Shown one piece after another: positions 29,222 through 57,421 of a stretch of 58,683 nucleotides of DNA. The number at the start of each line of letters is the position of its first letter. Within the stretch, counting starts at the first letter, position 1. The notes beneath the pieces are model-generated. The model was not told the origin of the DNA. It saw only the letters and a program-made list of their open reading frames with translations, and did no database searches. Source of the DNA: Candidatus Methylomirabilis sp. (lineage in GTDB: Bacteria > Methylomirabilota > Methylomirabilia > Methylomirabilales > 2-02-FULL-66-22); NCBI GenBank assembly GCA_037442485.1, contig JBBIQE010000005.1:1-58683 (forward strand). The letters run 5' to 3'. Made by a program: the position numbers and the translations under genes.

Positions 29222-29234
29222 ATAGTTCAGTACT

Positions 29235-31124: not shown

Positions 31125-31224
31125 GCCGTCCTCCTCGTGATGTCGAAGTGAAGAATGCGGCCCCGTGGCCGGCCTCTGCCCGGGCGATGCTGCCTCGCTT
31201 GGCCCTGGCAGGAAAGGCCCAAGG

Positions 31225-32166: not shown

Positions 32167-32171
32167 GGCGC

Positions 32172-41255: not shown

Positions 41256-42038
41256 CTACTCCGCCAGCCACCGCTTCAGGTAGGCCAGGGCGCGGGGGAT
41301 GCCGGTGGCCTCGGCCTCCTCCGCCTCGTACTCGAAGCTCACCCAGCCGTCATAGCCCGCCCGGCGAAGCGCGGGGATGATCCGGGCGTAATCCACGCTC
41401 TCGTCCGAGCCGTCGGCCGCGACCCTCCAGAACTTGGCGTGCACGTGCGCCGCGAGGCGGAGGGTCTTTTCCACGGAGGGCCACCCGTCGGTGAAGTTGC
41501 CGGTGTCGAGCAGCGGGGTCAGGTGGGGGGAGTGGACCTCCTCCAGGACCCGCAGGTACTCGGCCGCGGTCGGCGTGAAGGCGCCGTGGTTGTGGTTCTC
41601 CAGGCCCAGACGGATCCCCGCGTGGCCGGCGAAGGCGGCGACGTCCCGGAGACTGTCGACCATGGCGGGCCAGCGCGGCCCCCTCTGCGCGGGGCCGCCC
41701 TCGGGGTAGCCGGCGAAGACGCGGAGGAGGGGCGCGCCGAGCTGCTCGGCCACCTCGACCCACTGCTTGACCTTCACCACCTCGCTCTGCCGGAGGGTGG
41801 GATCGGCCCGCCCGAAGTCGTTGTGGACGCCGATGCCGATGATGGTGAGGCCATGGTCCCGGGCGGTCCGTCGGAGCATCCGGAGGTAGGCCGGGCGTGT
41901 CTGGGGGAAATGAATGTCCTGCAGTTCCACCCCCTGAACCCCGAGCTCGGTGGCGCAGCGGGCGAGGAACCGGACCTGGTCCATTGTCCCGGCCTCGAAG
42001 GAGCGGTTGAAGGTGCCGCAGATGCAGCCGAGCTTCAT
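41256..42038 (-). CDS. sugar phosphate isomerase/epimerase (xylose-isomerase-like TIM barrel)
   Basis: GVQGVELQ...LRVFAG...GIRLGLENH...PLLDTGNF...HVHAKF. ATG 42038 is preceded by GGAGGA. Confidence 0.85.
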   Translation of the reverse strand: MKLGCICGTFNRSFEAGTMDQVRFLARCATELGVQGVELQDIHFPQTRPAYLRMLRRTARDHGLTIIGIGVHNDFGRADPTLRQSEVVKVKQWVEVAEQLGAPLLRVFAGYPEGGPAQRGPRWPAMVDSLRDVAAFAGHAGIRLGLENHNHGAFTPTAAEYLRVLEEVHSPHLTPLLDTGNFTDGWPSVEKTLRLAAHVHAKFWRVAADGSDESVDYARIIPALRRAGYDGWVSFEYEAEEAEATGIPRALAYLKRWLAE

Positions 42039-42066
42039 GGCACGAGTCCTCCCCAATCCGAAATTA

Positions 42067-42215
42067 TCAACCGCCAAGGCGCCAAGAACGCCAGGCCCGA
42101 CATGGCGCATTTGCAGGAAACGCACGAAACTTCTGAATGCCTCCTGAACCGGTTTTCGCGTTCTTCACTGGAGGGATCGGAAACACCAGCTCCTTGGCGT
42201 CATGGCGGTTCAAGG
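42067..42215. repeat. long imperfect palindromic intergenic element, family 2
   Basis: The left arm TCAACCGCCAAGGCGCCAAGA matches the reverse complement of the right arm CCTTGGCGTCATGGCGGTTCA at 17 of 21 positions. The inner arms GGAAACGCACGAAAC and GGTTTTCGCGTTCTTC are also partly complementary. Confidence 0.4.
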
Positions 42216-42226
42216 CTCCTTTTGGA

Positions 42227-43117
42227 TCATGGTCCTTTCGGCGGCACGATGCCCTTGAGGGCGTGCAGCACCTGTTCGTGCAGACGGGGGTTGGCGCTGC
42301 ACACCAGGCTGTAGACCGCATGGATGTCCGGGCGAAACCGGACCGGGGATCCGTCCCAGCCGGTGACGACGCAGCCCGCCCGCTCCGCAATGGGGAGGGC
42401 GGAGAAGACCTCGGTCAGCGCCTCGTTCCAGGCGAAGTAGACGTCGATCCGCCCGCAGGCCACATCCGCGAAGCCGTTGGGGCCGCCGTTCGGCAGGATG
42501 AACTTGGCCCGCTCGAAGAGGGGGCGGAGGGCGCTCGCCGTGGGATACAGAAAGGCCGGCTTGCCCAGGTACGCCTCCAGGACGGCGCCGTCCAGGCTGG
42601 CCGTGGCGGCCGGCCGGACAGGGACGGCGCGGGCGCCCGGGCGGGCGATCCGGACGGCGCCGTCGGCATCCGCCAGGACGATCTCGCCGGTGATGTGGTC
42701 AATCGTGCCCGCCGCCCGAGGCGTTTCATCCAGGCCGTAGATCCCGAGGGCCGTGAACCAGTGGGCGCGGATGCCGCGCCGGTACAGCAGGCTCCCGTCG
42801 AAGGGGTCCGCGACGACGTACACCACCTCGTGGCGCGGGGGGGCGCCGCGCCGCTCCCCCAACCGCGCCTCCCCGGCCTCTTCGGAGAGGAGTGTCGCCC
42901 GGACCCCGCCCCGCCTCAGGGCGTTGATGATGGCGCGCTCCGCCGCCGTGTCCACCCCGATGACCTCGGGGTCCCACGGGCGGTAGCCCGCTTCCCGGCC
43001 GGCCACCACCCGTTGGCCCGCGCGCGGCGCCAGCCGGCGGACCGCGGCGTTGGCGGCAAGCAACCCGTCCCGGACCTTCCGCCGCCAGGGAAAAGGGGTC
43101 TTCCGCCTTCCGGTCAT
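42227..43117 (-). CDS. IMPase/FBPase-superfamily phosphatase-like protein
   Basis: VVADPFDGS (DPxDG[ST]-like motif) and overall fold-family look. Divergent. Confidence 0.65.
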   Translation of the reverse strand: MTGRRKTPFPWRRKVRDGLLAANAAVRRLAPRAGQRVVAGREAGYRPWDPEVIGVDTAAERAIINALRRGGVRATLLSEEAGEARLGERRGAPPRHEVVYVVADPFDGSLLYRRGIRAHWFTALGIYGLDETPRAAGTIDHITGEIVLADADGAVRIARPGARAVPVRPAATASLDGAVLEAYLGKPAFLYPTASALRPLFERAKFILPNGGPNGFADVACGRIDVYFAWNEALTEVFSALPIAERAGCVVTGWDGSPVRFRPDIHAVYSLVCSANPRLHEQVLHALKGIVPPKGP

Positions 43118-43130
43118 GTTCCCTCCTGCC

Positions 43131-43880
43131 TCACCATTCTTTCCCCGCTCGATCCACGTGGCGCAGCAGCCGGACGATCTCGCTCACGATGTGGCCCAGG
43201 GCCTTCTCGCCCAGGGCGCGCGAGACCCTGGAGGTATCGCCCCGGACCCCCGTCGGGTATTCCGTCTCGGGGTGGGCCAGCACGCGGAACCGGGAGAGCC
43301 GAGGGCGCGTTACCCTAGGGATGCGGTCCAGCCGGACCAGCTCTTCCGCGACGACCAGCATTTCCGAGGTTTCGATGGAGCCGGCGTGGCCGTCTTTGCC
43401 CTGGAGATCCGCTCCGTGCCGGATGGGATCGAGGAAGTCGTAGGGGCCGATGGTGAGGACGAGCAGGCCCGGGTCGGCGTTCACCAGGGGCAGGACGGCC
43501 TCGCGCATGGCCTCCAGCTGGGCCGGCTCGGCGTGGCCCGTGATCAGGGCGAACTTGCGGCCCCCGTGGCGCACATACTCGGCCACCACCTCGCGGACGA
43601 CGGCCTCCAGGGTGGCCGGGGCCAGCGAGATCGTCCCCGGCAAGTTCCGCATGGTCCGGCAGACGCCGTAGGGAAGGGCCGGCGCCACCAGGCCGCCCAC
43701 CTGTCCCGCCACCGCGGCGCACACGTGCTCCGCGTACAACAGGTCGGTCCCGAGCGGGAGGTGCGGCCCGTGCTGCTCCACCGCCCCGAAGGGCAGCAGG
43801 ATCCATCGCCCCGCCTGCATGGCGGCGGCGAATTCGTCCTTGGTCAGATTGGCCAAGCGGATCTCGGTGTGCTCGGACAT
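43131..43880 (-). CDS. creatininase-family amidohydrolase
   Basis: LLPFGAVEQHGPHLPLGTD...GHAGSIETS is typical of the creatininase/ArfB/MftE family. Confidence 0.85.
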   Translation of the reverse strand: MSEHTEIRLANLTKDEFAAAMQAGRWILLPFGAVEQHGPHLPLGTDLLYAEHVCAAVAGQVGGLVAPALPYGVCRTMRNLPGTISLAPATLEAVVREVVAEYVRHGGRKFALITGHAEPAQLEAMREAVLPLVNADPGLLVLTIGPYDFLDPIRHGADLQGKDGHAGSIETSEMLVVAEELVRLDRIPRVTRPRLSRFRVLAHPETEYPTGVRGDTSRVSRALGEKALGHIVSEIVRLLRHVDRAGKEW

Positions 43881-43963
43881 GACTCCTCTTGTCGGCGGGG
43901 CACCGACGGCTTCCGCCGTTGGCGGATTCGGGCCTTCGGGAAGGGTCGAACAGCCGAACGGTC

Positions 43964-45037
43964 TCAGCCGGATGTCATCGCCCAGCAGCGGATGCGCGGC
44001 AAGCGGATCCGGACCTCTGCCCCCGGGGCGAAGCGCCGTTGGGCGTCGGTCTGGACCCGCAAGGGCAGATCCTGGCCGAAGACCAAGCGGTAATCAATGG
44101 TGTCGCCGAGGTACGTCGTCTTCTCGACGCGGGCCTCGAAGACGTTGGTCCCGCCGGGATCGCCGGGGCGCAGCAGCTCGACCTCGCTGGGGCGCAGGAA
44201 CAGCAGGACCCGCTGGCCGGCACCGACGTTGGGCAGGGCGGGAACGGTCACCCCGAGCTCGCCGATGCCCACCCGCATGGTCTCACCGTCCACGGCCAGG
44301 ACGGAACCCTCGAGAAAATTCGACAGGCCGATGAATTCGGCCACGAACCGGGATTGCGGGTGTTCGTAGATCTCCTCCGGCGTGCCCACCTGCTCGAGCC
44401 GGCCGCGATTCATGATGGCCACTCGGTCGGACAGCGCCAGCGCCTCGCCCTGGTCGTGGGTCACGTACAATGCGGTGATGCCCAGCCGCGTCACCACCTC
44501 CTTGATCTCGAAGCGCATCTCTTCCCGCAGCTTGGCATCCAGGTTGGAGAGCGGCTCGTCCAGGAGCAGGACCTTGGGCCGGTAGACCAGGGCGCGGGCC
44601 AGGCCCACCCGCTGCTGTTGCCCGCCCGAGAGCTGTCGGGGGTAATGCGCCGCGTAGCCTTCCAACCGGACCAGGCGCAGCGCCTGGGCGACCCGCGCGT
44701 CCCGCTCGGCCCGGGAGAGGTTCCGGATCATCAGGGGGAACCCGACGTTGTCCTGGACCGTCATGTGGGGGAACAGGGCGAAGTTCTGGAAGACCATCCC
44801 CAGCTCCCGCTGGTGGGTGGGCAGATCCGTGACGTCCGCCCCGTCAATGAAGACCCGTCCCTCGTCCGGACGCACGTAGCCCGTGAGGCAGCGCAGCGCG
44901 GTGGTCTTGCCGCAGCCCGAGGGGCCCAGGAGGGTCATCAGCTCGCCGCGCCGGATCGTCAGGCTCAGGTGATCGTTGGCGAGCAGGGGGCCGTAGCGCT
45001 TGGTGACGTCGCGGAACTCGATCATGGCGTCGGTCAT
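43964..45037 (-). CDS. ABC transporter ATP-binding protein (PotA/MalK-like with C-terminal TOBE-type domain)
   Basis: GPSGCGKTT, LSGGQQQRVGLARAL, LLLDEPLSNLD, FVAEFIG. Confidence 0.9.
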   Translation of the reverse strand: MTDAMIEFRDVTKRYGPLLANDHLSLTIRRGELMTLLGPSGCGKTTALRCLTGYVRPDEGRVFIDGADVTDLPTHQRELGMVFQNFALFPHMTVQDNVGFPLMIRNLSRAERDARVAQALRLVRLEGYAAHYPRQLSGGQQQRVGLARALVYRPKVLLLDEPLSNLDAKLREEMRFEIKEVVTRLGITALYVTHDQGEALALSDRVAIMNRGRLEQVGTPEEIYEHPQSRFVAEFIGLSNFLEGSVLAVDGETMRVGIGELGVTVPALPNVGAGQRVLLFLRPSEVELLRPGDPGGTNVFEARVEKTTYLGDTIDYRLVFGQDLPLRVQTDAQRRFAPGAEVRIRLPRIRCWAMTSG

Positions 45038-45040
45038 GCC

Positions 45041-45877
45041 TCACACTCCCTTGAACCCTCCCACCAGCTTCTCCGGCTCGGCCCGCCGCTGGATCATGGC
45101 GAGGATCGCCAGGGATGGGAGGACCATGATCACGGCCATGGCGCTGGTGATCTCCCAGTACCCGTCCCCCACCGCCAGGTACGTCCGGATCGGCAGCGTC
45201 ACGGTGTGGGGTCCGTAGGTCAGAAGCGTCAGGGTGAACTCGTTGTAGGAATGGGTGAAGGAGAAGATCATGGAGGCCAGGATGCCGGGCATGATCAGGG
45301 GCAGGACGACGTAGAAGAACCGCTTGAGCGTGTTGGCGCCGCAGACCCCGGCCGCCTCCAGCACGCGCTCGTCCAGGCCCTCGAAGGTGGCGGAGAGGAC
45401 CAGAATGGCGTAGGGGGCGCAGACGGAGACGTGGGCCAGCGCCACGCCGAGATAGGTATCCACCAGGTCGAGGGTGTAGAAGATCTTGGCCACCCCCAGC
45501 GCGTAGGTGATGGGCGGGATCATCCGCGGCAGGAGGATCAGGGCCATCAGCACCTCCTTGCCCGGCATCTGCCGCCGCCCGAAGGCCCAGCCGGCGAAGA
45601 TGCCGATCACGGTGCTGACCGCCACGGCGATGACCCCGATGATCAGGGTGTTCTTCATGACCTCGGGGATGTTGCCCACCTCGACCGCCCAGCGGTACCA
45701 CTCCAGGGTGAGCTCGGGCGGCAGCCAGAGGCGGCCGAACCATCCCTTGCCCACGGACCGCAGCGCGATCATGAGAAAGGGGGCCAGGATGAGCAGGCTG
45801 AGGCTGGCGAGCAGGGTGTAGCCCAGGAGGAGCTTCCCGTCCCACAGACCGCGGAGGTACGCCCTGAGCAGCCTCAC
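45041..45877 (-). CDS. ABC transporter permease (PotC-like)
   Basis: Six hydrophobic helices and an EAA-type loop LEAAGVCGANTLKRFFYVVLPLIMPG. Confidence 0.9.
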   Translation of the reverse strand: MRLLRAYLRGLWDGKLLLGYTLLASLSLLILAPFLMIALRSVGKGWFGRLWLPPELTLEWYRWAVEVGNIPEVMKNTLIIGVIAVAVSTVIGIFAGWAFGRRQMPGKEVLMALILLPRMIPPITYALGVAKIFYTLDLVDTYLGVALAHVSVCAPYAILVLSATFEGLDERVLEAAGVCGANTLKRFFYVVLPLIMPGILASMIFSFTHSYNEFTLTLLTYGPHTVTLPIRTYLAVGDGYWEITSAMAVIMVLPSLAILAMIQRRAEPEKLVGGFKGV

Positions 45878-46764
45878 CGCACGCCTCCCGCCCCGGCGCC
45901 GCCGGCAGCGGCGCCGCCGGCCCGGCGCACCAGGCGCATGTACAGGGCCAGGAAGACCACCTGCAAGGCGCCCATCACCACGGCGATGGCGCTGGCGGCG
46001 GACCAGCGGGCCGGGATGGGCACCGCGATCTGCTTGTAGATCTCGACGGCGAGCGGCCGGTAATTGCCCCCGGCGATCAGGGGAACGCTGAACGCCCCGA
46101 AGGCGGCCATGAAGGTGAGGACCGACCCGGCCAGGATGCCGGGCGTGATGAGGGGCAGGACGATGTGGCGCAGGACCTGCCAGCGATTGGCGCCCGAGAC
46201 CTCCCCCGCCTCCTCGAGACTGCGGTCCAGGGACTCCAGGGCCGACAGGGTGGTCACGCAGGTGTAGGGGAAGTAGAGCCAGACGTAGAAGAACATCAGG
46301 CCGTGGATGGTGTAGTTCACGGCCACGGGCCGGCGGATGAAGGGGATGAACTGCATGAGGAAGAGGTTGAACCAGCCCCGCGTGCCGAAGAACAGCAGCA
46401 GGCCCAGGGCCCCGATCAGGCCGGGGATGACGAGGGGCACCAGGATCATCAGCCGGTAGAACCGGTGGCCCCGAACCTTCTCACGCAGGATCAGGGCCAG
46501 GGGCACGCTGAGCAGGACGGAGAGCGCGGTGGAGCCCAGGGCCAGGAGGAAGGTCAGCAGGATGACCCACTGGCCGTCGGGGTCCCGGAGGAAGCGGGTA
46601 TAGTTCTGGAGAGTCCATCCGGCCGTCTGTCCCTCCGGCCGGAAGCTGAGGATCAGGGTGAGGAGCATCGGGTAGAAAAAGAGGCCGAAGAATCCCGCCA
46701 AAGCGGGAAAGAGCAGGAGCAGCGTGGTCAGGTTCGAGGAGTGCGCCCGCCAGAATCGGGTCAT
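45874..46764 (-). CDS. ABC transporter permease (PotB-like)
   Basis: EAA-type loop LEEAGEVSGANRWQVLRHIVLPLITPG. ATG 46764 (MTRFW). The ORF-track N-terminal extension runs into a repeat element. Confidence 0.85.
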   Translation of the reverse strand: MTRFWRAHSSNLTTLLLLFPALAGFFGLFFYPMLLTLILSFRPEGQTAGWTLQNYTRFLRDPDGQWVILLTFLLALGSTALSVLLSVPLALILREKVRGHRFYRLMILVPLVIPGLIGALGLLLFFGTRGWFNLFLMQFIPFIRRPVAVNYTIHGLMFFYVWLYFPYTCVTTLSALESLDRSLEEAGEVSGANRWQVLRHIVLPLITPGILAGSVLTFMAAFGAFSVPLIAGGNYRPLAVEIYKQIAVPIPARWSAASAIAVVMGALQVVFLALYMRLVRRAGGAAAGGAGAGGVR

Positions 46765-46790
46765 GTCCGCGGTTTTCGTCCCAACCAATT

Positions 46791-46889
46791 CCCTCTCCCC
46801 ACTGCGGGAGAGAGGCCAGGGTGAGGGGGTCGAACGGGACGGCCAAATGACCCTCACCCCGCCCTCTCCCACAGGGAGGGGGGCAGGGG
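46791..46889. repeat. GC-rich multi-hairpin intergenic element (variant of family 1)
   Basis: CCCTCTCCCC-actgc-GGGAGAGAGG. GGGTGAGGG pairs with CCCTCACCC. CCCTCTCCC-acag-GGAGGGGGG. It lies between the binding-protein and permease genes. Confidence 0.45.
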
Positions 46890-46894
46890 TCTCG

Positions 46895-48034
46895 CTACGG
46901 GATCAGCTCTTTGGCGTGCCCTTTGATGTAGTCGATCATGTCCTTGCGGATCCGCTCCCGCGGAATCGCCGTCTTGGTCAGGACGTCCAGCTTGGGGATG
47001 ATCTCCCACACGATGCCGGGGATCTGATCGGTGATCTCTGTCCCCGGGTACTGCCACATGGTGGTGATCAGGCGGATCTGCTGGTCATCGGAGAGGAGGT
47101 AGTTGACGACCTTGAAGGCCACCTCCTTGTACTCCGGGGGGATGTTGGCGGGGACGGCCAGGTAGGCCGTGGCGATCTCGTCGGCGCCCTCCTCGGGATA
47201 CACCGCCTTGATGGTCGGCGGCATGGTCCCCTGGCGGGCCGACCAGAGGGAGTAGTCCTGGGCGTACAGGGAGAGCCAGGTGTCCCCCGCGTTGAAATCC
47301 TCGAACATGTTGGGGGGCTCGGCCGGCAGGGGCAGCTTGGCGTACTTGGTGAAGTCGATGAGCTTGGCCCAGGCGTCCTTGAAGGCGGGGTCCTTCTCGA
47401 GCTGGGCGATGGGCTGGGTCATCTTCTCCTTCAGGAAGGCGTGCAGGAACACCAGACGCTGCCGCCAGGCGGAGCTGGACTTGGCATCGGGCCGGATCAG
47501 GCCGATGTGGCCCTTGAATTCCGCGCGGCGGTCGTAGAACTCCTTCCACGACTTGGGCGGGGTCTTGATGTACTGGCTGTTGTAGATCAGGGCGTAGGAG
47601 GTGCGCCAGTACAGCGCTCCTTTCCCCTGCAGATCCACACCCTCATCGCTCTTGAGGTAGCGCGGGTCAACCTTGGCCAGGTTGGGGACATGGGCCGTGG
47701 AGAGGGTTTCCAGGGGAACGCCCGACTTCACCCAGGTCGCCATGGACTTGGGGAACAGGATGTGGACGTCGCCCTGGCCCGGCTTCCAGGCCTTGGTCTT
47801 CTGGATCTGCTCGGCGTCGCTGGTGACCAGGTACTTCAGGCTCACGCCGAGGGACTGCCTGACGGCCGGGATCACGTACTTCTGCCAGTAGGCCTGGAAG
47901 TTGGCCCCCGACTGGCTGTCCGCCATGACCAGTTCGGTCGGGGCCCCGGCCGTGGTCGGGGCAGGGCTCGCCAGCGGGACGAGCGCCAGGCCGAGGATCG
48001 CGAGAATCGTGGCTGGCCGCATGCGACTTTTCAT
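46895..48034 (-). CDS. extracellular solute-binding protein (family 1, PotD/iron-type)
   Basis: Signal peptide [22 protein letters not shown]. It is the first gene of the permease/ATPase set. Size and pattern fit a periplasmic binding protein. Confidence 0.8.
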
Positions 48035-48243
48035 GGTCTACCCCCTTCCCCCTCTCGAAAGGAAGAACCCTGCGGTTCCATGGGATGCCGCCCGTGCGGG
48101 GCCTCCTGCGCGGTTCGTGACCACCCCCCTTCGCAAACCGTAGGACCCTGTCGGGCCAGGTCCCTTCACTCATACCAGATATTCTCGGAGAATGCCATGC
48201 TGTTTCGCCCACCCCCCGGGGCCTCCGGCCCCGCTCCCGCGGC

Positions 48244-49409
<1,166 letters not shown>

Positions 49410-49410
<1 letters not shown>

Positions 49411-50207
49411 CAGGACCTCCGGGATGCCGCCCTGACGGGCTGGCGGTTCAGGGCCGTGATCAGATGGCGATGAATGCGGCCGTTACTGGCGAGGATGGTC
49501 GGCTGCTCCAGGGCGAAGGGGCGGCCCGCGCCGTCCGTGACGCGCCCGCCTGCTTCCCGCACCAGGAGGGCCCCCGCGGCCACGTCCCAGGGACGGGCGC
49601 TCTGCTCCCAGTAGGCGTCCAGCCGCCCGGCCGCGACGTAGGCCAACGAGAAGCCGGCGCCGAAGATGCGGACGTTCCGCACCCGGAGGGCCAGCCGGGC
49701 GATCCGCTCGCGTAAGGGCCGGTCGCGCCAGACCGAGTCGTCCTGCCAGAGGGCGACCACACACTCGATGAGGCGCCGCCTGGCCGATACCCGGATCCGG
49801 CGGCCGTTCAGCCAGGCCCCCCGCCCCCGCTCTGCCACGAACAGCTCTCCCAGCCGGGGCAGCAGGATCACGCCCGCCTCTACGCGCCCCTGCCGCTCCA
49901 GGGCGATGGAGACGGCGAAGCAGGGCAGGCCGCTCAGGAAGGCGAGCGTGCCGTCCAGCGGATCCGCGATCCAACGGCCATCCGGCCCGTCGGCGCTGCT
50001 GCCCTCCTCGCCGACAAATCCGATGCGCGGGAAGCGGCGCGCCAGGGTGACGCGAATGCAGCGCTCCGCGGCCACGTCCGTCCTCGTGACGGGGTCCTTT
50101 ACCCCCTTGAGGCGGACGGCCCGCACACGGCCGAAGTGGCGGAGGAGGATCTCACCCGCCGCCTCGGCCGCCTCGATGGCCGCCCGGGTCTCGGACCAAA
50201 ACCTCAT
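49410..50207 (-). CDS. inositol monophosphatase-family protein
   Basis: IADPLDGTLAFL and RPWDVAAGALLVREAGG are canonical IMPase motifs. ATG 50207; the ORF-track start at 50213 is a TTG. Confidence 0.85.
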
Positions 50208-50209
50208 TT

Positions 50210-50381
50210 GCAAACGTTCAGCCCGTCCATGCTGCCGAGTTGGCCTCTTCCTGCGTCTTCATTCCGGCAGAAGCCGGAATCCAGGGCGCCGGAATTTCTC
50301 GACCCCGGCGCCTGCCCCGGACTCCGATCCGGGGTTCGCCGGAGTGACAACGTGGGATGCGGCCCGAGTCTGAACGTTTAC
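50210..50381. mobile_element. MITE-like palindromic element with an 8-bp target-site duplication
   Basis: The terminal inverted repeats are GCAAACGTTCAG and CTGAACGTTTAC (11 of 12 positions). They are flanked by direct CCTCATTT at 50202-50209 and 50382-50389. There are three internal stem-loops: ATTCCGGC/GCCGGAAT, GCGCCGG/CCGGCGC and CCCCGG/CCGGGG. Confidence 0.6.
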
Positions 50382-50383
50382 CC

Positions 50384-51463
50384 TCATTTCAGCGGCCGCT
50401 TGATGGCCTTGAAGATCTGGTGGAGCAGGGCGATGTCGCCCCGGGCTTCTTCCGGCGTCGTGATGGGGGGTTTCCCTTGCTGCACGCACGCGGCAAAGTG
50501 CAGCAGCTCCTCCTTGAACGCCTCCTGCATGGAGGCGATGACCCGCTTCTCGAAGGGCTTGCCATCCTCCATCCCTTCCACGATGACGGGCGTGGGCATG
50601 TTGCGGAAGAACGGGGAGGGGAAGACCAGCCGGACCCGGTCGGCCTTGCCGTAGTAGGCGACGGTCTCCTCGTAGTGGGCCAGGTCCCAGAGGTAGTGCA
50701 GGCTGATGACGGCCCGGACGCCGGAGGCGTAGCGCAGGCAGGTCATCAGACTGTCGCCCCCGGCCCAGACGTCGGTGTAGAGCACCTCGGCGGGATCCCC
50801 CGAGAGCCCCCGCAGGAGGTTGATGTCGTGGACCAGGGTGGACAGGAGATTCTCGGCGAATACGCGGCGCTCGAGCGGGGTAAACTCGCCGATCGCCTCC
50901 CGGATGAGCTGATCCTGCTCGGCCCGGAGCGTGGCCCGAGCTGCCTCGGGGACGTCCGGGAAGCGGCGGACGTCGTGGTGGCCGATCTGGTTCGCCTCGG
51001 AGGGGTGCAGGACGGTGATGTGGATCGCCTGGAGATCCTTCATCTTCTGGATGATCGGCTGGGCATAGCGGAAGCCGGGATCGTACCGCTTCATGTAGGT
51101 CACCATGCACACGGTCCCGGCCCGCTGGTGGGCGGCCAGGATCTCGTCCGCCTCCCGAAGCGTGTAGCACATCGGCTTCTCGGTGAAGACGTGCTTCCCC
51201 GCCTTGAGGGCGTCCAGGATGACCTTCCCGTGGGAGTCGGCGGAGAGGACCACCACCACGTCCAGCGACTCCTTCAGCAGGTCGCGGTAGTCCGTGAACC
51301 GCTGGCTCACCCCGTAGTAGTCGCCCACGTACTTCAAGGTTCCTGGCGACACGTCGCAGAGCGCCACGACCTCGAACAACTCGTGCAGCTCCCTCAGGTG
51401 GGGCAGGTGCATGACCTGGGCGATCAATCCGCATCCGATGACTCCGACTCGCATGCGACTCAT
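50384..51463 (-). CDS. Gfo/Idh/MocA-family oxidoreductase
   Basis: MRVGVIGCGLIAQVMHLPHL...HVFTEKPM is a Rossmann plus EKP motif. Confidence 0.9.
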   Translation of the reverse strand: MSRMRVGVIGCGLIAQVMHLPHLRELHELFEVVALCDVSPGTLKYVGDYYGVSQRFTDYRDLLKESLDVVVVLSADSHGKVILDALKAGKHVFTEKPMCYTLREADEILAAHQRAGTVCMVTYMKRYDPGFRYAQPIIQKMKDLQAIHITVLHPSEANQIGHHDVRRFPDVPEAARATLRAEQDQLIREAIGEFTPLERRVFAENLLSTLVHDINLLRGLSGDPAEVLYTDVWAGGDSLMTCLRYASGVRAVISLHYLWDLAHYEETVAYYGKADRVRLVFPSPFFRNMPTPVIVEGMEDGKPFEKRVIASMQEAFKEELLHFAACVQQGKPPITTPEEARGDIALLHQIFKAIKRPLK

Positions 51464-51483
51464 GACGGTCTCCCTCTGGTGTT

Positions 51484-52350
51484 CTACTGCGGTTCAGGCG
51501 CTCCTGCCGGTTCCTGCGGCCAGTGTCGCCGCAGCGCCGTCAGCGACTCGCGGATGTAGCCGTCGAGGATCCCCGGAGATCGCTCGTCCTTGATCGCCCG
51601 GAAGGGATCCGGTCCGGGAGGCATGACCTCGACCACGATGGCGGCTGCATACCGGATCTCGCGGAGGGCCGTGGCGACCGCGACCAGATCCAGATGCCCT
51701 TTCCCCAGCGCCTGGCGGTTCGTGTCGGCCACGTGGACGTGGAAAAGGCGCGGGCCGGCGGCCCGGATGGATTTCGGGATGTCGGGCTCTTCGAGGTTGG
51801 CGTGGAACATGTCGAGCGTCACGCCGACCCACGGAGATGCGATGGCGTCCACATAGGCGATGGCCTCCTGGGCCGTCGTTACCAGGTAGGCCTCGTACCG
51901 GTTGAGGGGTTCGATGCTGATGCGAACCCTCTGCCGCTCGGCCTCCCGGGCGGCCTGGCGCATGGCCTCGACGGACCAGGCCCATTCCTCGGCCCGGGTG
52001 GCGATGGGCGCGAGCCGCGTCTCGCCCGAGGGGAGCATCTGGATCAGCGGGGCGCCAATCTCCGCCGCAAACCGGAGGCAGCTCACGACGTAGGCCACGG
52101 CATCCTTCCGGATGGCCGGATCGGGATGGGCCAGGTCGCGCCGCGTCTGCGGCACCATGCACGAAGCCGTGAGCGCGAGCGGGGCCAGGCCATGCCGGCC
52201 AAGGAGCCGCCGAAGCTCCCCGCGGGAGAACTGCTCCGGCTCCCCCGGCAGTTCCACTCCGTCGTAGCCTGCGGCGGCAATGCGGGCCACGGTCTGCTCC
52301 AGGGGGGCCTCTCCGTAGATCCAGGCGCAGACACCGAAACGCGGCATCAT
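51484..52350 (-). CDS. sugar phosphate isomerase/epimerase (TIM barrel)
   Basis: GYDGVEL...RISIEPLNRYE...TLDMFHANLEE...HVHVADTNR. ATG 52350 follows GGAGTGGAG. The ORF-track start at 52356 is a GTG. Confidence 0.85.
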   Translation of the reverse strand: MMPRFGVCAWIYGEAPLEQTVARIAAAGYDGVELPGEPEQFSRGELRRLLGRHGLAPLALTASCMVPQTRRDLAHPDPAIRKDAVAYVVSCLRFAAEIGAPLIQMLPSGETRLAPIATRAEEWAWSVEAMRQAAREAERQRVRISIEPLNRYEAYLVTTAQEAIAYVDAIASPWVGVTLDMFHANLEEPDIPKSIRAAGPRLFHVHVADTNRQALGKGHLDLVAVATALREIRYAAAIVVEVMPPGPDPFRAIKDERSPGILDGYIRESLTALRRHWPQEPAGAPEPQ

Positions 52351-52374
52351 CTCCACTCCGCCCGGGGGCGATGC

Positions 52375-52617
52375 TCAGTCGGCGGCGACCTCCGCGCCCA
52401 GGACGCGGCGGCGGCCCAGCCAGTGGGCGGGCAGGATACAGGCCGCCAGGACCAGGATCAGCAGCGTGGACAGGGCGGCCCCGCGTCCGATGGTCCCGTA
52501 CTCCGCCCACGAGAGGATGAGGACCGTCACCAGGTCGTGGCCCGGCGAGACCAGGAAGATGACCTGGCTCACGGCCGTCATGGCCCGGACGAAACTGTAG
52601 ATTTCGTAACGCGCTCA
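52375..52617 (-). pseudogene. 3' fragment of an ABC transporter permease gene
   Basis: ARYEIYSFVRAMTAVSQVIFLVSPGHDLVTVLILSWAEYGTIGRGAALSTLLILVLAA matches only the last two helices of iron/PotB-type permeases. The frame is closed by a stop at 52618-52620, exactly where base composition changes. Confidence 0.6.
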
Positions 52618-52637
52618 TCCTGCACTGCCCATTCTTC

Positions 52638-53066
52638 CTATTTCTTCTCGAGCCGATATGTTCCCGTGGAGCTACTCTTCTGGTATTTGTATTCGCCCTG
52701 CATTACTCTTCCACCCTCTTCCAGCCAGACGGTGTCCATTCTCTTGTCACCGGGGAAATCGTCGCCAGGAAAGATAGCCCGACCCCTTTGGTCAGCCCGG
52801 CCAACCGCTTGCCACTTGGAGGTCAACCGACCCACTTCATAAAAGGAACCTTTTAGTTGATTGGTGGCCGAGTCGAGTTCAATGACGACCCCTATCAATC
52901 CTGTGTTGCCCCTTGCGCTTCTCCAGGTTCCGGACCAATTACCCTCAAAGGCCCTCAGCTGTTCGATCTGGGCAGAAGGCCCCTGACCCAAGGCGGTCAC
53001 GGGTCCGATTACCAAAGAGCCAAAGGTCATTGTCAGGACGAGCAGAGGAAATGAGGTGTTCCGCAT
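52638..53066 (-). CDS. hypothetical secreted protein
   Basis: Signal peptide MRNTSFPLLVLTMTFGSLVIGPVTALG. Lower-GC codon usage. No family recognised. Confidence 0.5.
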   Translation of the reverse strand: MRNTSFPLLVLTMTFGSLVIGPVTALGQGPSAQIEQLRAFEGNWSGTWRSARGNTGLIGVVIELDSATNQLKGSFYEVGRLTSKWQAVGRADQRGRAIFPGDDFPGDKRMDTVWLEEGGRVMQGEYKYQKSSSTGTYRLEKK

Positions 53067-53256
53067 CTTTGTCCCCCCTTCGCTTGCCTAAATCTCAAAT
53101 GAGTTGGAGCGCGCTTCAGTCCGCCAAGTCAGAAATGCAATGTGATGAAATCTCGGCGAGACGCTGACATTAAATTCCAAAGTGGCCTACCGGTATGATC
53201 AAGGACCGCTCGCGCTGTGCCCACATCCGGGGGTATCAGTCCGAGCAATGATTTCA

Positions 53257-53902
53257 TCACCTCCCTCTGATTTTTGGTGGGGCGATTTCGGCAACGAATC
53301 CCACCTGGTCACCGATCCAGAGGATACGGGTCAGAGGATACGCCATCTTTGCCGATTGGAAGGGGGGCGTACCCCGCGTGTAGGTAAGGACCAGCTCAGG
53401 ACCGGTTACTCTATCGAGCAGATATCCACCCATCGGTTCGAGGCGTTCCGGAGCCCTGATGCCTGGTTGGACCTGGGCTTGACGGTGCTGGGGAAGCAGG
53501 GCAGGCCCCGGGACTTCCTCGGACCAGTAGGCGTCTGAGATCTCCCGCACCCAGAATTGAAAGTCGGCCTTCCAGCGGTCATCGCTCACCCGAATCATGT
53601 AGAAAAAAAGCGGCGGTGCGACCGCTTTCCAGATTCGTTCGGTTCAGAATCAGTCGCTCCGTCGTCAGATAAACCTTTATGATAGGCCAGCCGAGGGCTT
53701 TCTCTCGCTCATCCGGGCTCAGGGTGATAGGGTTCTTGGCGAAGAGAGGGGTTGCTCTGAGAAAATTGACCATTTCATCTTCGGCACCTCTCGCTACCTC
53801 GGCGTTGATCCCCTCTAGGGTCAGCAGAGAGAGAGCGGAGGTACGGCTTGCCAATCTAGGCAGAAAGGTGCGCTTCATCCTGAGACCCCCGATGATGTTC
53901 AT
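53257..53902 (-). pseudogene. hypothetical protein split by a frameshift at an A7 (T7 on the coding strand) tract
   Basis: ORFs 53579..53902 and 53257..53598 overlap. Removing one base of the run at 53603-53609 joins ...GRTAAFF to YMIRVSDDRWKADF... as one protein of about 215 aa. Confidence 0.4.
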
Positions 53903-53933
53903 TCCTGTTGGCTCGAAAAGGTCCCATGCTCAT

Positions 53934-54407
53934 TCACCGATCTTCGCTGACCTCTGGCCCGACGCCCAAATCCACCGGACTGGAAATCCGCCGTAGCCAG
54001 GGAACCCTATCGAAATCCGGATCCAGGCTAGCGATGTCCCTTATCCCATGTTCCCTTGCAAGAAGGGCGATAAGCGCATCATGGAAGTTCAGTTTCCCCC
54101 CAGAAACGGAGACCAAATCCAGCACGGCGGAGAACAACCGTTCGATCTCTCGGGAAACCCATACGGGAGGATGCCTCTCCACGAAGGCGCGATATCGGCT
54201 GAAGAGCAGCGTCCATTCGTCCTGCTTTCTCCGCTCCTCACAGCGCCGAGCCAGCACGGAGATTGTCTCATTGGCAACGCAGTCTAGAAAGAGGAGGGAA
54301 GCTTCGACTTGTTCCAGTGACTTCCAGAGCGCGAGTGCAACAGCCCGCTGGCTATCCCGCTCGTCGATTCTGGCAACGACAATGCTGGTATCGATAATGA
54401 TCCTCAT
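53934..54407 (-). CDS. PIN-domain toxin (VapC-like)
   Basis: MRIIIDTSIVV..., ...NFHDALIALLA..., ...SLDPDFD (PIN acidic residues). It overlaps the upstream small gene by 4 nt. Confidence 0.8.
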   Translation of the reverse strand: MRIIIDTSIVVARIDERDSQRAVALALWKSLEQVEASLLFLDCVANETISVLARRCEERRKQDEWTLLFSRYRAFVERHPPVWVSREIERLFSAVLDLVSVSGGKLNFHDALIALLAREHGIRDIASLDPDFDRVPWLRRISSPVDLGVGPEVSEDR

Positions 54408-54613
54408 TCATAGAGTCTCTCTGTGTCCTCGACCGCATCCCCCCCCCACGCGACGATGGCGTCCAGCTCGCGAAAAGCCGAGGCTGGAATGCCGACCCAA
54501 TCTTTCTCTTCCCCAGGAAACAGGACGTATGCCTCCGAACCCTCTGGAACTTGGGGATCTTCGGCGAACCGAACGACTCCCCTCTCATAGACACCCTTTA
54601 CTGCTTTCGCCAT
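54404..54613 (-). CDS. DUF104/AF2212-like antitoxin
   Basis: VKGVYERGVVRFAEDPQVPEGSEAYVLF fits the DUF104 pattern (..YenGv..l.e...lpEG..v.v). It lies upstream of, and overlaps, the PIN gene. Confidence 0.6.
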   Translation of the reverse strand: MAKAVKGVYERGVVRFAEDPQVPEGSEAYVLFPGEEKDWVGIPASAFRELDAIVAWGGDAVEDTERLYE

Positions 54614-54807
54614 CCCTGTTCCTCCCCCCTGTCATGACCAAATAGAGGTCGGTCTACGTTTCTCCCCTTGACCCATCAGGATCGCCATTTCAGTCAGAGC
54701 ACTTCGTAACACGCGCCACTTGCGAAGTCAACCCTCGCGAGGGGAACCAGGGCTCGCGCCCGGACCCTCGGGACTGTACGAACTGTAAAGCAGTTGCTGC
54801 CCGGGTA

Positions 54808-56118
54808 TCATCCGATCACCTGATCCAGATTCGCGAAGACCCGCTGGAACGCCTCCACGTAGTCGCGCATCAGCTCCATCGGCTGGGGGAACAGGGGATG
54901 CGAATGCGAGCCCACAACCAGCGAGTCATTGAGCAGCTTCAGCGTTTCAGGATACTCGGTGAGGTCGTACTTCACCTCCTCGCCCAGGGGGCATTGCCAG
55001 GGGCAGGCGAGGCCATAGCCCGTGCGTTCCTGGAACAGGGTCTGGCCCGGGACGGGCACGGTCTGCCACAGGCTCACCTCGACCCCCTCGGCCTTGAGCG
55101 CGGCCAGCACCTTGAGCCGGAACTCTCGCGCCGGCAGGGTGACGCCCGCGGCGCGGGGATCCAGCCGGATGCGGTACTGGTAGAAGCTGGACGTGCAATC
55201 GGGCGGGACGTAGGGCGGGGTGATGCCCGGGATCTTCGCGAGCTGCTCCGTGAGGTAGGCGGCGTTGCGCCGCGTGTTGGCCAGGGAGTCGTCGAGGCGC
55301 CGGAGCTGGCTGCGGCACAGGGCCGCGGTCAGTTCGTTCGTCCGGTACATCCACCCCATCATGAGCGAGTTGTACTCCCGCACCCCGTCCAGGGGCCGGG
55401 CGGGATCGAAGGCCCTCCGGTCGCTCTCGCGGATGTCCTCGCCGAACATGCGGAACATGTTCCCCCGGTCCCGAAGCTCCTCGCGGTTCGTCACGAAGAT
55501 CCCGCCTTCGCCGGCGGGCAGGTTCTTGCTGCCCTGGAAGGAGAAGCAGCCCATGTCCCCGATGCCGCCGACCTTCCTGCCCTTGTACGTCGAGCCGTGA
55601 GCCTGCGCCGCATCCTCGATCACCAGGAGGCCGTGCTTCCTGGCGATGGCCAGGATGGGGTCCATGTCGGCGGGCAGGCCATGGATGTGCACCGGGATGA
55701 TAGCCCGGGTCCGGGAGGTGATCCGTTCCTCGATCTTCGCCGGGTCCATGTTGTAGGTGCGGGGGTCGATGTCCACGAAGACGGGCACGGCGTTCTGCTG
55801 CAGCACCGCCAGGGCCGTGGCCAGGAAGGTGAAGGCCGTCGTGATGACCTGATCGCCGGTGCCGATGCCGCCGGCCGCCACCGCGGTGTGCAGCGCGGCC
55901 GTGCCGCTGTTGGTGCTGAGCGCGTACTTCACCCCGCAGTAGCGCGCCCATTCCTCCTCCAGGGCCTTGACCTGGGGGGCGTAGGGACCGTTGAGGATGC
56001 CGGAATCCAGGGCGGCGGCCACGGCGGCCTTGTCCTCCGGGGTGATGACGGGCCAGCGGACGTGCAGGGCCTTGCGAACGACCGGGGAACCGCCCCGGAG
56101 GGCCAGGGTGTCTTTCAT
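54808..56118 (-). CDS. DegT/DnrJ/EryC1/StrS-family PLP aminotransferase
   Basis: ALSTNSGTAALHTAV...IIPVHIHG...DAAQAHG...CFSFQGSKNLPAGEGG (PLP-lysine region). Confidence 0.9.
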   Translation of the reverse strand: MKDTLALRGGSPVVRKALHVRWPVITPEDKAAVAAALDSGILNGPYAPQVKALEEEWARYCGVKYALSTNSGTAALHTAVAAGGIGTGDQVITTAFTFLATALAVLQQNAVPVFVDIDPRTYNMDPAKIEERITSRTRAIIPVHIHGLPADMDPILAIARKHGLLVIEDAAQAHGSTYKGRKVGGIGDMGCFSFQGSKNLPAGEGGIFVTNREELRDRGNMFRMFGEDIRESDRRAFDPARPLDGVREYNSLMMGWMYRTNELTAALCRSQLRRLDDSLANTRRNAAYLTEQLAKIPGITPPYVPPDCTSSFYQYRIRLDPRAAGVTLPAREFRLKVLAALKAEGVEVSLWQTVPVPGQTLFQERTGYGLACPWQCPLGEEVKYDLTEYPETLKLLNDSLVVGSHSHPLFPQPMELMRDYVEAFQRVFANLDQVIG

Positions 56119-57224
56119 GGAGGACTCCTTCTGGTTGGACGTGATCGCCGCCCCAGGAGGCTGGGCCCGGCGCCGGCCCCGCCACCGGCGCCACAGGACG
56201 ACCGGATCAACAGGGTATGAGAGACGACGGTGGTCGTGAAGACGTGCCGCTCCCCCTGCTCCATCTGGGCGATGGCCCGACGCACGGCCAGGCGGCCCAT
56301 CTCCTCCTTGGGGACGGCGACGGTGCTGAGCGGCGGCGTGGTGTGGGCCGCGTACTCGATGTCATCGTAGCCGACGATGGCGATGTCCTCGGGCACCCGC
56401 AGGCCGTGGTCGTGAATGGCCCGCAGGGCCCCGATGGCCATGTCGTCGTTGGTGAAGACGGCCGAGGGCCGCTGGGCGGCCTTGAGGAGGGACTCGGCCG
56501 CCTCGTACCCGCCCTCGGGCCGGAAGGCCGCCTCGACCACCAGATCCTCCCGCAGCGGGAGGCCGGCCTCGCTGAGCGCGCGCCGGTAGCCGCTGGTGAG
56601 GGCCCGGGAGAAGGGGTGGCGGGCCGGACCGCGGATCAGCCCGATGCGCCGGTGGCCGAGCTTGATGAGATGGCGGGTGGCCTCGTACGCTCCCTCGGCA
56701 TCGTCGCAGACCACGGCGTCCACGCCCTTGAGCGGCGGCCGCATGTCCACCAGGACCAGGGAGAACCCGTTGCCGTGAAGCTGCCGCACGAACCGCGGGG
56801 CCACCTTTCCCACCAGGATGAGCCAGCGGGTCATCATGTCGCGGATCATCCGGGGATAGTCGGAGGGGTGTGCCGCATCGCCCAGGCCGTACCCCAAGAG
56901 GAGGTGGCAGTCGGAGCGGCGGGCCTCGTCGGCGATGCCCTGGATGATCCCGGCGAAGTAGCTGTGCGAGGTCACGACCTCGCGGCTGAAGATGGTGCCC
57001 ACGATCCGGTCGCCGCGCGGGCCGGGGGCCGTGCGGCTGACCAGGAGCTGGGCGGCCGGATTGGGGATGTAGCCCAGCCGGCGCACCGCCGCTTCCACCT
57101 TCCGACGGCTGGCGGCGCTCACGTCGGGGCGGTCCCGCACCACGCGCGAAACCGTCATGATGGAGAGTCCCGTGTGCCGTGCGATGTCGCGCAGCGTCAC
57201 CGAGGTCCGGACAAACTTGGGCAT
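56115..57224 (-). CDS. LacI-family transcriptional regulator
   Basis: N-terminal HTH TLRDIARHTGLSIMTVSRVV plus a periplasmic-binding-fold effector domain (AVFTNDDMAIGAL..IVGYDD). The stop overlaps the DegT ATG (ATGA). Confidence 0.9.
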   Translation of the reverse strand: MPKFVRTSVTLRDIARHTGLSIMTVSRVVRDRPDVSAASRRKVEAAVRRLGYIPNPAAQLLVSRTAPGPRGDRIVGTIFSREVVTSHSYFAGIIQGIADEARRSDCHLLLGYGLGDAAHPSDYPRMIRDMMTRWLILVGKVAPRFVRQLHGNGFSLVLVDMRPPLKGVDAVVCDDAEGAYEATRHLIKLGHRRIGLIRGPARHPFSRALTSGYRRALSEAGLPLREDLVVEAAFRPEGGYEAAESLLKAAQRPSAVFTNDDMAIGALRAIHDHGLRVPEDIAIVGYDDIEYAAHTTPPLSTVAVPKEEMGRLAVRRAIAQMEQGERHVFTTTVVSHTLLIRSSCGAGGGAGAGPSLLGRRSRPTRRSPP

Positions 57225-57239: not shown

Positions 57240-57253
57240 TGTTAGCGTTAACG
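57240..57253. promoter_or_regulatory. possible LacI-type operator half-palindrome upstream of the regulator gene
   Basis: TGTTAGCGTTAACG has a central CG, and its core GTTAGCGTTAAC matches its own reverse complement at 10 of 12 positions. It lies 16 nt upstream of ATG 57224. The match to the TGNAANCGNTTNCA-type consensus is weak. Confidence 0.2.
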
Positions 57254-57421
57254 GTACGCTTTTACTCCAGGTCGGTCCCGGGCGTCAAGGAATTTCTCGG
57301 ACGTTCCCACCCACGAGGCTCTCTCAATTTCCCCTTGACTCTTGGCAACGCTTTGAACAACTTTGCGTGCGAGTGTCCCTCCTGCAATGCTCCCCATTTG
57401 TCAAGACACTTTTTCTGGGGG

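Follow-up and report, generated by a model that had tools for sequence, protein, structure and literature searches.

A cluster of 13 genes, all on the minus strand, fills positions 41256-57224 (16 kb) of a 58,683-nucleotide stretch of DNA from Candidatus Methylomirabilis sp. (NC10/Methylomirabilota; assembly GCA_037442485.1, contig JBBIQE010000005.1, positions 1-58,683). This stretch was analysed as a whole and is called the window. In our judgement the cluster is probably the uptake and "upper pathway" operon of a LacI-controlled catabolic regulon for inositol or related cyclitols in this NC10 bacterium. The metagenome-assembled genome that holds the window, and from which two further contigs (C55 and C101) are cited below, has a size of 3.07 Mb, a completeness of 71% and a GC content of about 0.68. 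Gene families were assigned with Pfam models, with NCBIfam models and their equivalog cut-offs, and by sequence matches to solved structures (PDB).

The original prediction, which was made from the letters of the window and a list of its open reading frames (ORFs), named the gene families, their order and their common strand, all of which the combined ORF, Pfam and NCBIfam analysis bears out. As to the ORF list itself, the genes for the proteins that we call GFO1 and TIM1 are present (as ORFs of 359 and 290 amino acids), but two of the longest ORFs listed are in wrong frames. Adjacent genes mostly abut or overlap, the DegT and LacI genes by 4 nucleotides (nt). The larger gaps are a low-GC island, a 172-bp insert, 209 nt before the gene of the substrate-binding protein (SBP) and 101 nt before TIM2. 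In the order of transcription, the cluster and its control region consist of:

57283-57288 and 57262-57267, minus strand: LacI promoter with -35 element TTGACG (57283-57288) and -10-like element (57262-57267), conserved, the operator directly downstream
57240-57253, minus strand: LacI operator, imperfect palindrome CGTTAACGCTAACA (coding strand), conserved upstream of LacI
56115-57224, minus strand: LacI-family repressor (Pfam LacI, Peripla_BP_1 and Peripla_BP_3), first gene of the operon
54808-56118, minus strand: DegT/DnrJ/EryC1 pyridoxal phosphate (PLP) aminotransferase (PF01041, 319 bits)
51484-52356, minus strand: TIM1, xylose-isomerase-like TIM barrel of the ketose 3-epimerase/IolO type (AP_endonuc_2, 155 bits)
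50384-51463, minus strand: GFO1, Gfo/Idh/MocA oxidoreductase, candidate inositol dehydrogenase (PF01408, 84 bits)
49410-50213, minus strand: IMP1, typical inositol-monophosphatase (IMPase)-family phosphatase (PF00459, Inositol_P, 202 bits)
48244-49410, minus strand: GFO2, Gfo/Idh/MocA dehydrogenase of the levoglucosan-dehydrogenase/scyllo-inositol-dehydrogenase subgroup
46895-48034, minus strand: SBP (SBP_bac_8; PotD/FbpA fold class)
45874-46872, minus strand: ABC permease 1 (BPD_transp_1; true start probably near 46764)
45041-45877, minus strand: ABC permease 2 (BPD_transp_1; 82-95% identical among relatives)
43964-45037, minus strand: ABC ATPase with TOBE domain (ABC_tran and TOBE_2)
43131-43880, minus strand: creatininase-family binuclear metallohydrolase (PF02633, 185 bits)
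42227-43117, minus strand: IMP2, divergent IMPase-superfamily protein (PF00459, 30 bits)
41256-42125, minus strand: TIM2, xylose-isomerase-like TIM barrel (AP_endonuc_2, 132 bits)

An operator shared with a second inositol locus

The 230 nt upstream of LacI were aligned from 14 NC10 loci, across which the -35 box (TTGAC), the -10-like box and the palindrome CGTTAACGCTAACA are conserved. The assembly of 3.07 Mb contains just two exact copies of this 14-mer, where 0.0036 would be expected from base composition. The second copy (C55:4085-4098) lies 185 nt upstream of iolM, between two divergent operons, one with an iolE-like gene and a split transketolase, the other with iolM, iolN and an iolO-like gene. 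Three other NC10 genomes each have, at no more than one mismatch, a single other site, and it falls into the same intergenic region between iolM and the iolE-like/transketolase genes. A reversed control pattern searched at the same stringency gave 0-3 matches per genome, so that the number of sites means little by itself and it is their repeated location that constitutes the evidence. Within the window no further operator was found at up to 2 mismatches.

Since the same operator is found at the LacI promoter and at the iolM-iolN locus, one LacI-type repressor most probably controls both, and the cluster would thereby belong to an inositol catabolic regulon. The regulon link and the assignment to cyclitols appear likely to us. 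Transcription of the 16-kb operon probably begins at the LacI promoter, and unregulated internal starts may contribute. The LacI protein itself matched no NCBIfam equivalog at cut-off. A third operator-like site, the perfect palindrome GTTAACGTTAAC at C101:6322-6333, is one mismatch away from the operator core and lies upstream of a gene for an AddA-like helicase-nuclease; because of this neighbour and the unrelated genes around it, we judged the site to be a chance or unrelated occurrence.

The locus around the second operator copy (C55:841-12032) is a second inositol locus, comprising a split transketolase, an IolE-like gene, IolM, IolN, an IolO-like gene and IolD. The original prediction had mentioned an iolB-like gene upstream of the cluster, and this gene proved to encode a true IolB. 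The inositol genes and the partners of IolB are:

C55:4283-5455: IolM, scyllo-inosose 3-dehydrogenase (NF041097; 559 bits, cut-off 450)
C55:5471-6583: IolN, 3-dehydro-scyllo-inosose hydrolase (NF041098; 320 bits, cut-off 245)
C55:6775-7446: IolO-like gene (NF041099; 153 bits, cut-off 300)
C55: IolD (894 bits, cut-off 715)
C55, beside the split transketolase: IolE-like gene (220 bits, cut-off 290)
Window 33499-34236, minus strand: IolB, 5-deoxy-glucuronate isomerase (TIGR04378; 331 bits, cut-off 205)
Window, about 31225-33563: split transketolase of the IolB operon
Window 29235-31124: tungsten-type aldehyde:ferredoxin oxidoreductase (AOR) of the IolB operon
Window 26900-28174: LIV-type SBP of the IolB operon

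IolD, IolB and the IolE-like gene all lie outside 41256-57224. For IolG (TIGR04380, cut-off 355 bits) the best match in the 71%-complete genome reached 151 bits, and IolC, IolJ and IolA were not identified in this genome. IolB heads an operon of its own (26900-34305) with the three partners listed, and it is conceivable that these form a kinase-free lower branch of inositol degradation, in which the transketolase would cleave C5-C6 off 2-deoxy-5-keto-gluconate, leaving a 4-carbon aldehyde for oxidation to malate by the AOR. A third transketolase-like gene near the cyclitol genes encodes a protein of 811 amino acids (37324-39759, minus strand) with weak Transketolase_N and Transket_pyr matches.

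Conservation of gene order and inositol neighbours

Proteins of the window were compared by tblastn with loci collected with the DegT and the creatininase-like protein, about 35 loci in two orders. Every NC10 and Rokubacteria locus of sufficient length retains the block SBP-permease-permease-ATPase-creatininase-IMP2-TIM2, in which IMP2 always follows the creatininase gene, and GFO1, IMP1 and TIM1 are usually present in the cassettes of both groups. LacI, DegT and GFO2 are found in NC10 loci and are absent from all five Rokubacteria-type loci examined. Given an order that is kept across about 35 loci, the arrangement of the genes is not due to chance.

Homologues of the cluster also stand next to inositol genes in other lineages. 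On a Rokubacteria contig the homologous cassette adjoins true IolD (941 bits, cut-off 715) and IolE (413 bits, cut-off 290), and in a proteobacterial genome an SBP homologue (41% identity) is encoded between IolD (908 bits) and a LacI regulator with an IMPase. Operons that encode SBP homologues of about 50% identity also contain genes for IolM (559 bits), IolG-like dehydrogenases, TIM barrels, a PfkB kinase and UxaE; distant relatives (30-40%) are found in LacI- or RpiR-regulated sugar-type loci.

The DegT aminotransferase

The DegT protein contains the SFQGSK motif with the PLP lysine. Its relation to the characterised inosose aminotransferases (StsC, BtrS, MosB and Hyg8) was gauged from bit scores against solved structures and from genomic context. 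The best solved relative, at 343 bits over the full length, is 8gyh, identified as Fic25 through PMC11726168; Fic25 is the homodimeric ficellomycin aminotransferase of PDB 8GYJ and has been compared with AziC7 (PMC11726168). Perosamine synthase follows with 214 bits, scyllo-inosose aminotransferases with 183-205 bits (the Gln:scyllo-inosose enzyme 7b0d 205, BtrS 191) and NtdA with 114 bits. As the scyllo-inosose aminotransferases score about as the GDP-perosamine synthases do, similarity to solved structures does not settle the substrate.

In a maximum-likelihood tree of 81 homologues, the NC10 DegT proteins form a clade with one protein from Wallbacteria and one from Bipolaricaulota (support 100/99), apart from the five other DegT paralogues of this genome. 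The original prediction had named a grouping with nucleotide-sugar aminotransferases as a result that would speak against it; the protein stands apart from the genome's other sugar aminotransferases. In Bipolaricaulota the gene heads a DegT-SBP-permease-permease-IolG-IolM-IolN-IolO-like operon (IolG 458 bits, cut-off 355; IolM 569; IolN 321), and an archaeal-labelled contig has an operon of the same type with an additional UxaE (IolG 446, IolM 556, IolN 318 bits). In Wallbacteria an IolG-like gene follows DegT, and a Firmicute locus reads DegT-glutamate dehydrogenase-LacI-GFO2-like dehydrogenase (39% identical to GFO2)-TIM barrel-zinc alcohol dehydrogenase-SBP. Broader homologues at 35-45% identity (Chloroflexota, Armatimonadota, Planctomycetota) showed no association with iol genes, which limits the DegT-iol link to the closer clade.

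The position at the head of operons beside importers and the pairing with glutamate dehydrogenase, which suits a net deamination, agree with a catabolic role of the transaminase: by removal of an amino group it would make the carbon skeleton available to the inositol pathway. Conversion of inosamine to inosose would be the simplest reading of the reaction, and we predict an aminocyclitol (inosamine):2-oxoacid aminotransferase.

Several URO-D-family (corrinoid methyltransferase-like) genes flank DegT-clade members in a spirochaete (L136:10340-14097) and in Omnitrophica (L138:1187-12574). These neighbours may reflect demethylation of O-methyl cyclitols.

Dehydrogenases, phosphatases and the creatininase-like protein

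GFO1 occurs in NC10 as well as in Rokubacteria cassettes, and GFO2 co-occurs with LacI and DegT. GFO2 scored 324 bits against the levoglucosan dehydrogenase model NF052479, below the cut-off of 650, and 285 and 165 bits against the solved structures 6a3f and 5ya8. For TIM1, IolO is the best-matching family (NF041099, 157 bits), as it is for the gene at C55:6775-7446, both below the cut-off of 300; D-psicose/tagatose 3-epimerases and TM0416 in the PDB match TIM1 with about 100 bits. The original prediction had likened the TIM barrels to IolE. With 32 bits against the IolE model TIM1 does not deserve this label and is better described as a ketose-3-epimerase/IolO-like protein. TIM2 has no assignable subfamily, every NCBIfam match being at or below 37 bits and the best PDB match (4ovx) at 62 bits.

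IMP1 matches the HisN and SuhB models with 188 and 152 bits, both below cut-off. Aligned with the IMPases 5zhh and 2qfl, IMP2 keeps the EE and DPFDGS metal-binding motifs and has TE in place of WD. NC10 relatives carry a divergent third IMPase-family gene (43-47% identical to IMP1) upstream of LacI, at the place where the window has an IS3 element; this gene was not found in the incomplete (71%) assembly. Inositol-1-phosphate synthase (PF01658) is absent from this 71%-complete genome and from four cluster-bearing relatives, among which is a single-chromosome assembly of 5.6 Mb. It follows that the phosphatases are not there for inositol synthesis de novo, and that the role of the cluster is catabolic, not biosynthetic.

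The creatininase-family protein scored 134 bits against the creatininase model TIGR04448 (cut-off 235). The metal ligands E, H, D, H and E and the catalytic His are conserved, and Tyr121 is replaced. By these features it belongs to the superfamily without being a creatininase in the strict sense. The IolN model matches its N-terminal part only, with 52 bits against a cut-off of 245, so that the gene is not IolN either, the true IolN being encoded on C55. Together with IMP2 and TIM2 the protein makes up an invariant trio behind the transporter, which probably processes the imported compound by cleavage of an amide, a diketone or a phosphoester.

Two importers, one of them lost

The SBP belongs to a small family (112 cluster representatives at E<=1e-3 among 1.8 billion). 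It has no sequence match among solved structures in the PDB and matches no PotD/PotF model of NCBIfam, the best scores being 44 bits for PRK11622 and 18 bits for YdcS. AlphaFold2 models were computed from alignments of 13 and 38 sequences, with a mean predicted local distance difference test score (pLDDT) of 58.7 and 90.7, respectively; the latter was used. Its best Foldseek match is PotD (1pot; 17% identity, TM 0.60, E 2.6e-17), and the matches to PotD, FbpA/FutA and MalE, with at most 17% identity and a TM of at most 0.68, indicate the fold class only. Polyamines and iron had been named by the original prediction as ligands that would speak against it; in the genomes the SBP family stands beside inositol genes, not polyamine genes. 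The predicted ligand is a cyclitol or cyclitol derivative.

Ten NC10 relatives have a second importer between DegT and TIM1, consisting of a phnS2-like SBP and a fused permease. In the window this interval is occupied by the low-GC island, listed here with further features in and around the cluster:

52603-54807 (approximately): low-GC island (GC 0.56-0.58) with a PIN toxin gene
53934-54407: PIN (VapC-type) toxin gene inside the island (Pfam PIN)
52407-52602, minus strand: 3' remnant of a fused permease, last 65 codons (tblastn and blastn against relatives)
50210-50381: repeat-bounded insert of 172 bp between GFO1 and IMP1, a 170-nt gap where adjacent genes otherwise abut
57437-58616, minus strand: IS3-family element directly upstream of the LacI promoter (HTH_Tnp_1 and rve domains)

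The remnant is 78% identical (tblastn) to residues 649-713 of the 723 residues of the permease in a relative locus (L098), and 85-90% identical (blastn) to two others (L004 and L016). As only 65 codons of the permease are left, the island replaced about 3 kb of importer genes. The interruption by an island that the original prediction described is real, but it is no simple insertion. The strain has therefore lost one of the two importers of the cluster, since the PIN-toxin island deleted the phnS2-like SBP together with the greater part of the fused permease. The IS3 element lies about 185 nt upstream of the LacI start, and a little further on the contig ends. Immediately downstream of the cluster, in a stretch with a GC content of 0.64, an NTP_transf_2 (nucleotidyltransferase-domain) ORF at 40065-40787 (plus strand) may be part of a toxin-antitoxin pair.

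In NC10 and Rokubacteria, IMPases occur together with binding proteins of the phnS2-like family, whose name refers to 2-aminoethylphosphonate. On an archaeal-labelled contig a phnS2-like importer lies by a non-homologous Cof-type HAD phosphatase, beside an inositol operon. The recurrence of these importers with two unrelated phosphatase families suggests that a cyclitol phosphate may be imported and then dephosphorylated in the cytoplasm.

Proposed pathway and alternatives

In the proposed pathway, a cyclitol or cyclitol derivative would be taken up by the PotD-class ABC importer with its pathway-specific SBP, while the second, phnS2-like importer (deleted here) would act with IMP1 and IMP2 on phosphorylated cyclitols such as inositol phosphates. 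GFO1 and GFO2 would oxidise ring hydroxyls to give inososes, and DegT would transaminate an aminocyclitol (inosamine) to an inosose. The inososes would then enter either the IolM/IolN branch with ring opening or the IolE/IolD/IolB branch, with TIM1 as an IolO-like epimerase. We infer the substrates, the inosamine step, the roles of IMP1 and IMP2 and the functions of the creatininase-like protein and TIM2 from homology and gene context. Inosamine and inositol phosphate are tentative substrates, and we would put each of them somewhat short of an even chance. A catabolic or salvage role in cyclitol metabolism had already been favoured by the original prediction. This reading is strengthened by the operator shared with iolM-iolN, by cassettes next to IolD, IolE or IolM, by DegT genes in iol operons, by the IolB gene upstream and by the missing inositol-phosphate synthase.

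Several observations weigh against the proposal. With 91 and 88 bits, GFO1 and GFO2 are far from the IolG cut-off of 355 (TIGR04380), and the closest characterised relative of GFO2 is levoglucosan dehydrogenase. The best solved relative of DegT, Fic25, aminates an acyclic carrier-bound ketone, and scyllo-inosose aminotransferases score no better against DegT than GDP-perosamine synthases. Not all members of the DegT clade have inositol genes as neighbours: in Anaerolineae the context is DegT-PIG-L/BshB-like deacetylase-importer, in Omnitrophica two split transketolases follow (51% and 41% identical to those of C55), and in a spirochaete the neighbours are URO-D-family genes. DegT is also missing from the Rokubacteria-type cassettes examined and is therefore an accessory module. 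The fold comparison of the SBP points to no ligand, and its relatives at about 50% identity occur without IMPases, so that it may simply bind free inositol. The operator on C55 lies about 45 nt upstream of the -35 element of iolM and not over the transcription start. Finally, the genome is only 71% complete.

In a first alternative the cluster would still belong to the inositol regulon, but the substrate of DegT would be acyclic, a 1,3-dihydroxy-2-keto intermediate such as 5-keto-L-gluconate, tagaturonate, 2-deoxy-5-keto-gluconate or a product of transketolase. This would follow the logic of Fic25 and AziC7, where the ketone for the aminotransferase is supplied by a split transketolase. The full-length match to Fic25 (343 bits), the order of genes in Omnitrophica, the transketolase that shares the LacI operator region on C55 and the one in the IolB operon of the window would all agree with this. 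We nevertheless regard it as unlikely: the Bipolaricaulota and archaeal-labelled operons have no transketolase and carry DegT at their head by an importer, which suits an imported compound, and there are no carrier-protein genes (AmCP/LysW type) among the Pfam results of the cluster. If, on the other hand, the levoglucosan dehydrogenase match of GFO2 (324 bits; 6a3f 285 bits) is taken as the guide, the cluster could be an oxidoreductive catabolic operon for amino sugars or glycosides. GFO2 would make a 3-keto sugar, on which the TIM barrels would act by elimination or hydration; reduction by the second Gfo enzyme would follow, and DegT would take the amino group off a 3-amino sugar in a reversal of the kanosamine-type NtdC/NtdA/NtdB logic. 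The Lgd pathway consists of two Gfo enzymes and two xylose-isomerase-like TIM barrels, a composition that the cluster matches. NtdA is a detectable relative of DegT (114 bits), and the more distant relatives of the SBP are found in sugar loci under LacI or RpiR control. However, the score of GFO2 is far under the levoglucosan dehydrogenase cut-off of 650, the operator is common to iolM-iolN, cassettes lie by IolD, IolE and IolM in several lineages, the DegT clade occurs in IolG/M/N/O operons, and the enrichment of IMPases would have no role. A sugar operon of this kind therefore seems quite improbable to us.

A biosynthetic aminocyclitol cluster, which the original prediction had kept as an alternative, would run from IMPase (inositol) over dehydrogenase (inosose) to DegT (inosamine) and supply a secondary metabolite or lipid head group, as for hygromycin A or streptomycin. 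The same trio of IMPase, inositol dehydrogenase and aminotransferase is the proposed route of Hyg25/Hyg17/Hyg8 in hygromycin A (PMC10949010), and IolG plus MosB makes scyllo-inosamine in vitro (PMC6668481). This alternative is contradicted by the absence of inositol-1-phosphate synthase from this genome and four relatives, by the LacI repressor, the ABC importer and the operator common to the catabolic iolM/iolN genes, and by Pfam results for the cluster that include no glycosyltransferase, methyltransferase, kinase, amidinotransferase or exporter; we consider it highly improbable. Just as remote is a chance juxtaposition of a PotABCD polyamine importer with unrelated housekeeping enzymes (HisN/SuhB-type phosphatases, a sugar-nucleotide aminotransferase). 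It would account for the source annotation of the SBP as "putative spermidine/putrescine", for PotD as the top Foldseek match and for HisN as the best model for IMP1. Synteny largely refutes it, as gene order is kept in about 35 loci in two orders; moreover, the SBP is 17% identical to PotD without a PotD/PotF equivalog match, all models are below cut-off, and operator and genomic context point to one pathway.

Returning to the cyclitol regulon, a much wider form of the proposal can be drawn up, which as a whole we hold to be doubtful. It would have NC10, Rokubacteria and, with variations, other uncultured bacteria and archaea scavenge inositol phosphates and inosamines by a route not yet described. 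This route would comprise a PotD-class family of cyclitol SBPs, a phnS2-like phospho-importer coupled to cytoplasmic IMPase or HAD phosphatases, a DegT inosamine:2-oxoacid aminotransferase and the trio of creatininase-like, IMPase-like and TIM-barrel proteins, feeding the IolM/IolN and IolE/IolD/IolB branches. At the end of the latter branch, transketolase and AOR may yield malate in a kinase-free step.

Inositol phosphates are a major pool of organic phosphorus in soil, and aminocyclitols form the cores of aminoglycoside antibiotics and rhizopines. To our knowledge, their uptake and degradation by uncultured soil and groundwater bacteria are poorly known. The cluster offers candidates that can be cloned, namely an SBP of a small subfamily, two IMPase-family phosphatases, an iol-linked DegT found in bacteria and archaea and a repressor with a defined operator, which make the cyclitol question testable in E. 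coli without an NC10 culture. If our assignment is correct, the cluster would also point to heterotrophic use of sugar alcohols in a phylum whose best-known trait is nitrite-dependent methane oxidation.

Relation to described systems

The importer of the cluster shares with PotABCD the four-gene architecture (SBP, two permeases, TOBE ATPase) and the SBP fold class, but its SBP, at 17% identity to PotD, represents a small subfamily apart, with inositol enzymes as genomic partners. The rhizopine genes mocCABRDEF of Sinorhizobium meliloti (PMC6668481) are similar in that they serve a catabolism of aminocyclitols which depends on the inositol pathway, with a MocA dehydrogenase, a TIM barrel and an SBP-dependent importer. 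The likeness to moc that the original prediction had seen does not go further: the regulator of moc is of the MocR/GntR type and that of the cluster of the LacI type, the SBP class differs, moc has neither a DegT aminotransferase nor an IMPase, and the cluster lacks a MocDE-type oxygenase, no Rieske or ferredoxin oxygenase domain being among its Pfam results. With the aminocyclitol trios (Hyg25/Hyg17/Hyg8; IolG/IdhA and MosB) the cluster has in common the enzyme families and the chemistry from inositol phosphate over inositol and inosose to inosamine. Unlike them, it is predicted to run in reverse, has importers and a repressor but neither inositol-phosphate synthase nor tailoring enzymes, and its DegT is not demonstrably in the StsC/BtrS/MosB clade. 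Membership in the moc, PotABCD or levoglucosan pathway was rejected after a defining feature of each had been looked for and found missing.

The closest parallels are the two inositol routes. Of the Bacillus subtilis iolABCDEFGHIJ system (TIGR04377-TIGR04380), this genome has IolD on C55, IolB in the window and an IolE-like gene, and in Rokubacteria relatives the cassette adjoins IolD and IolE. The 16-kb cluster itself, however, contains none of these genes, and IolB is accompanied by split transketolases and AOR. The Thermotoga maritima-type myo-inositol pathway, which Rodionova and colleagues are said to have described in 2013, reportedly uses IolG, IolM, IolN and IolO with an ABC importer. 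This genome has IolM and IolN above cut-off and an IolO-like gene under the operator of the cluster; the cluster contributes Gfo/Idh/MocA dehydrogenases, an IolO-like epimerase and an ABC importer, and relatives of its DegT head full IolG-M-N-O operons in other lineages. It differs in that its creatininase-family gene does not encode IolN, its dehydrogenases fall short of IolG equivalogs, its importer is of the PotD class and not of the sugar type, its regulator is of the LacI type, and its DegT and two IMPase-family proteins have no counterpart. In the literature that we searched, with incomplete coverage, there is no account of a catabolic arrangement like this one, of an inosamine aminotransferase that serves catabolism, of an ABC importer for inositol phosphates or of NC10 or Rokubacteria that use inositol. 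The system, as we read it, is a variant of inositol catabolism not previously described, which would extend the B. subtilis- and T. maritima-type routes by an aminotransferase module, phosphatases and unusual importers.

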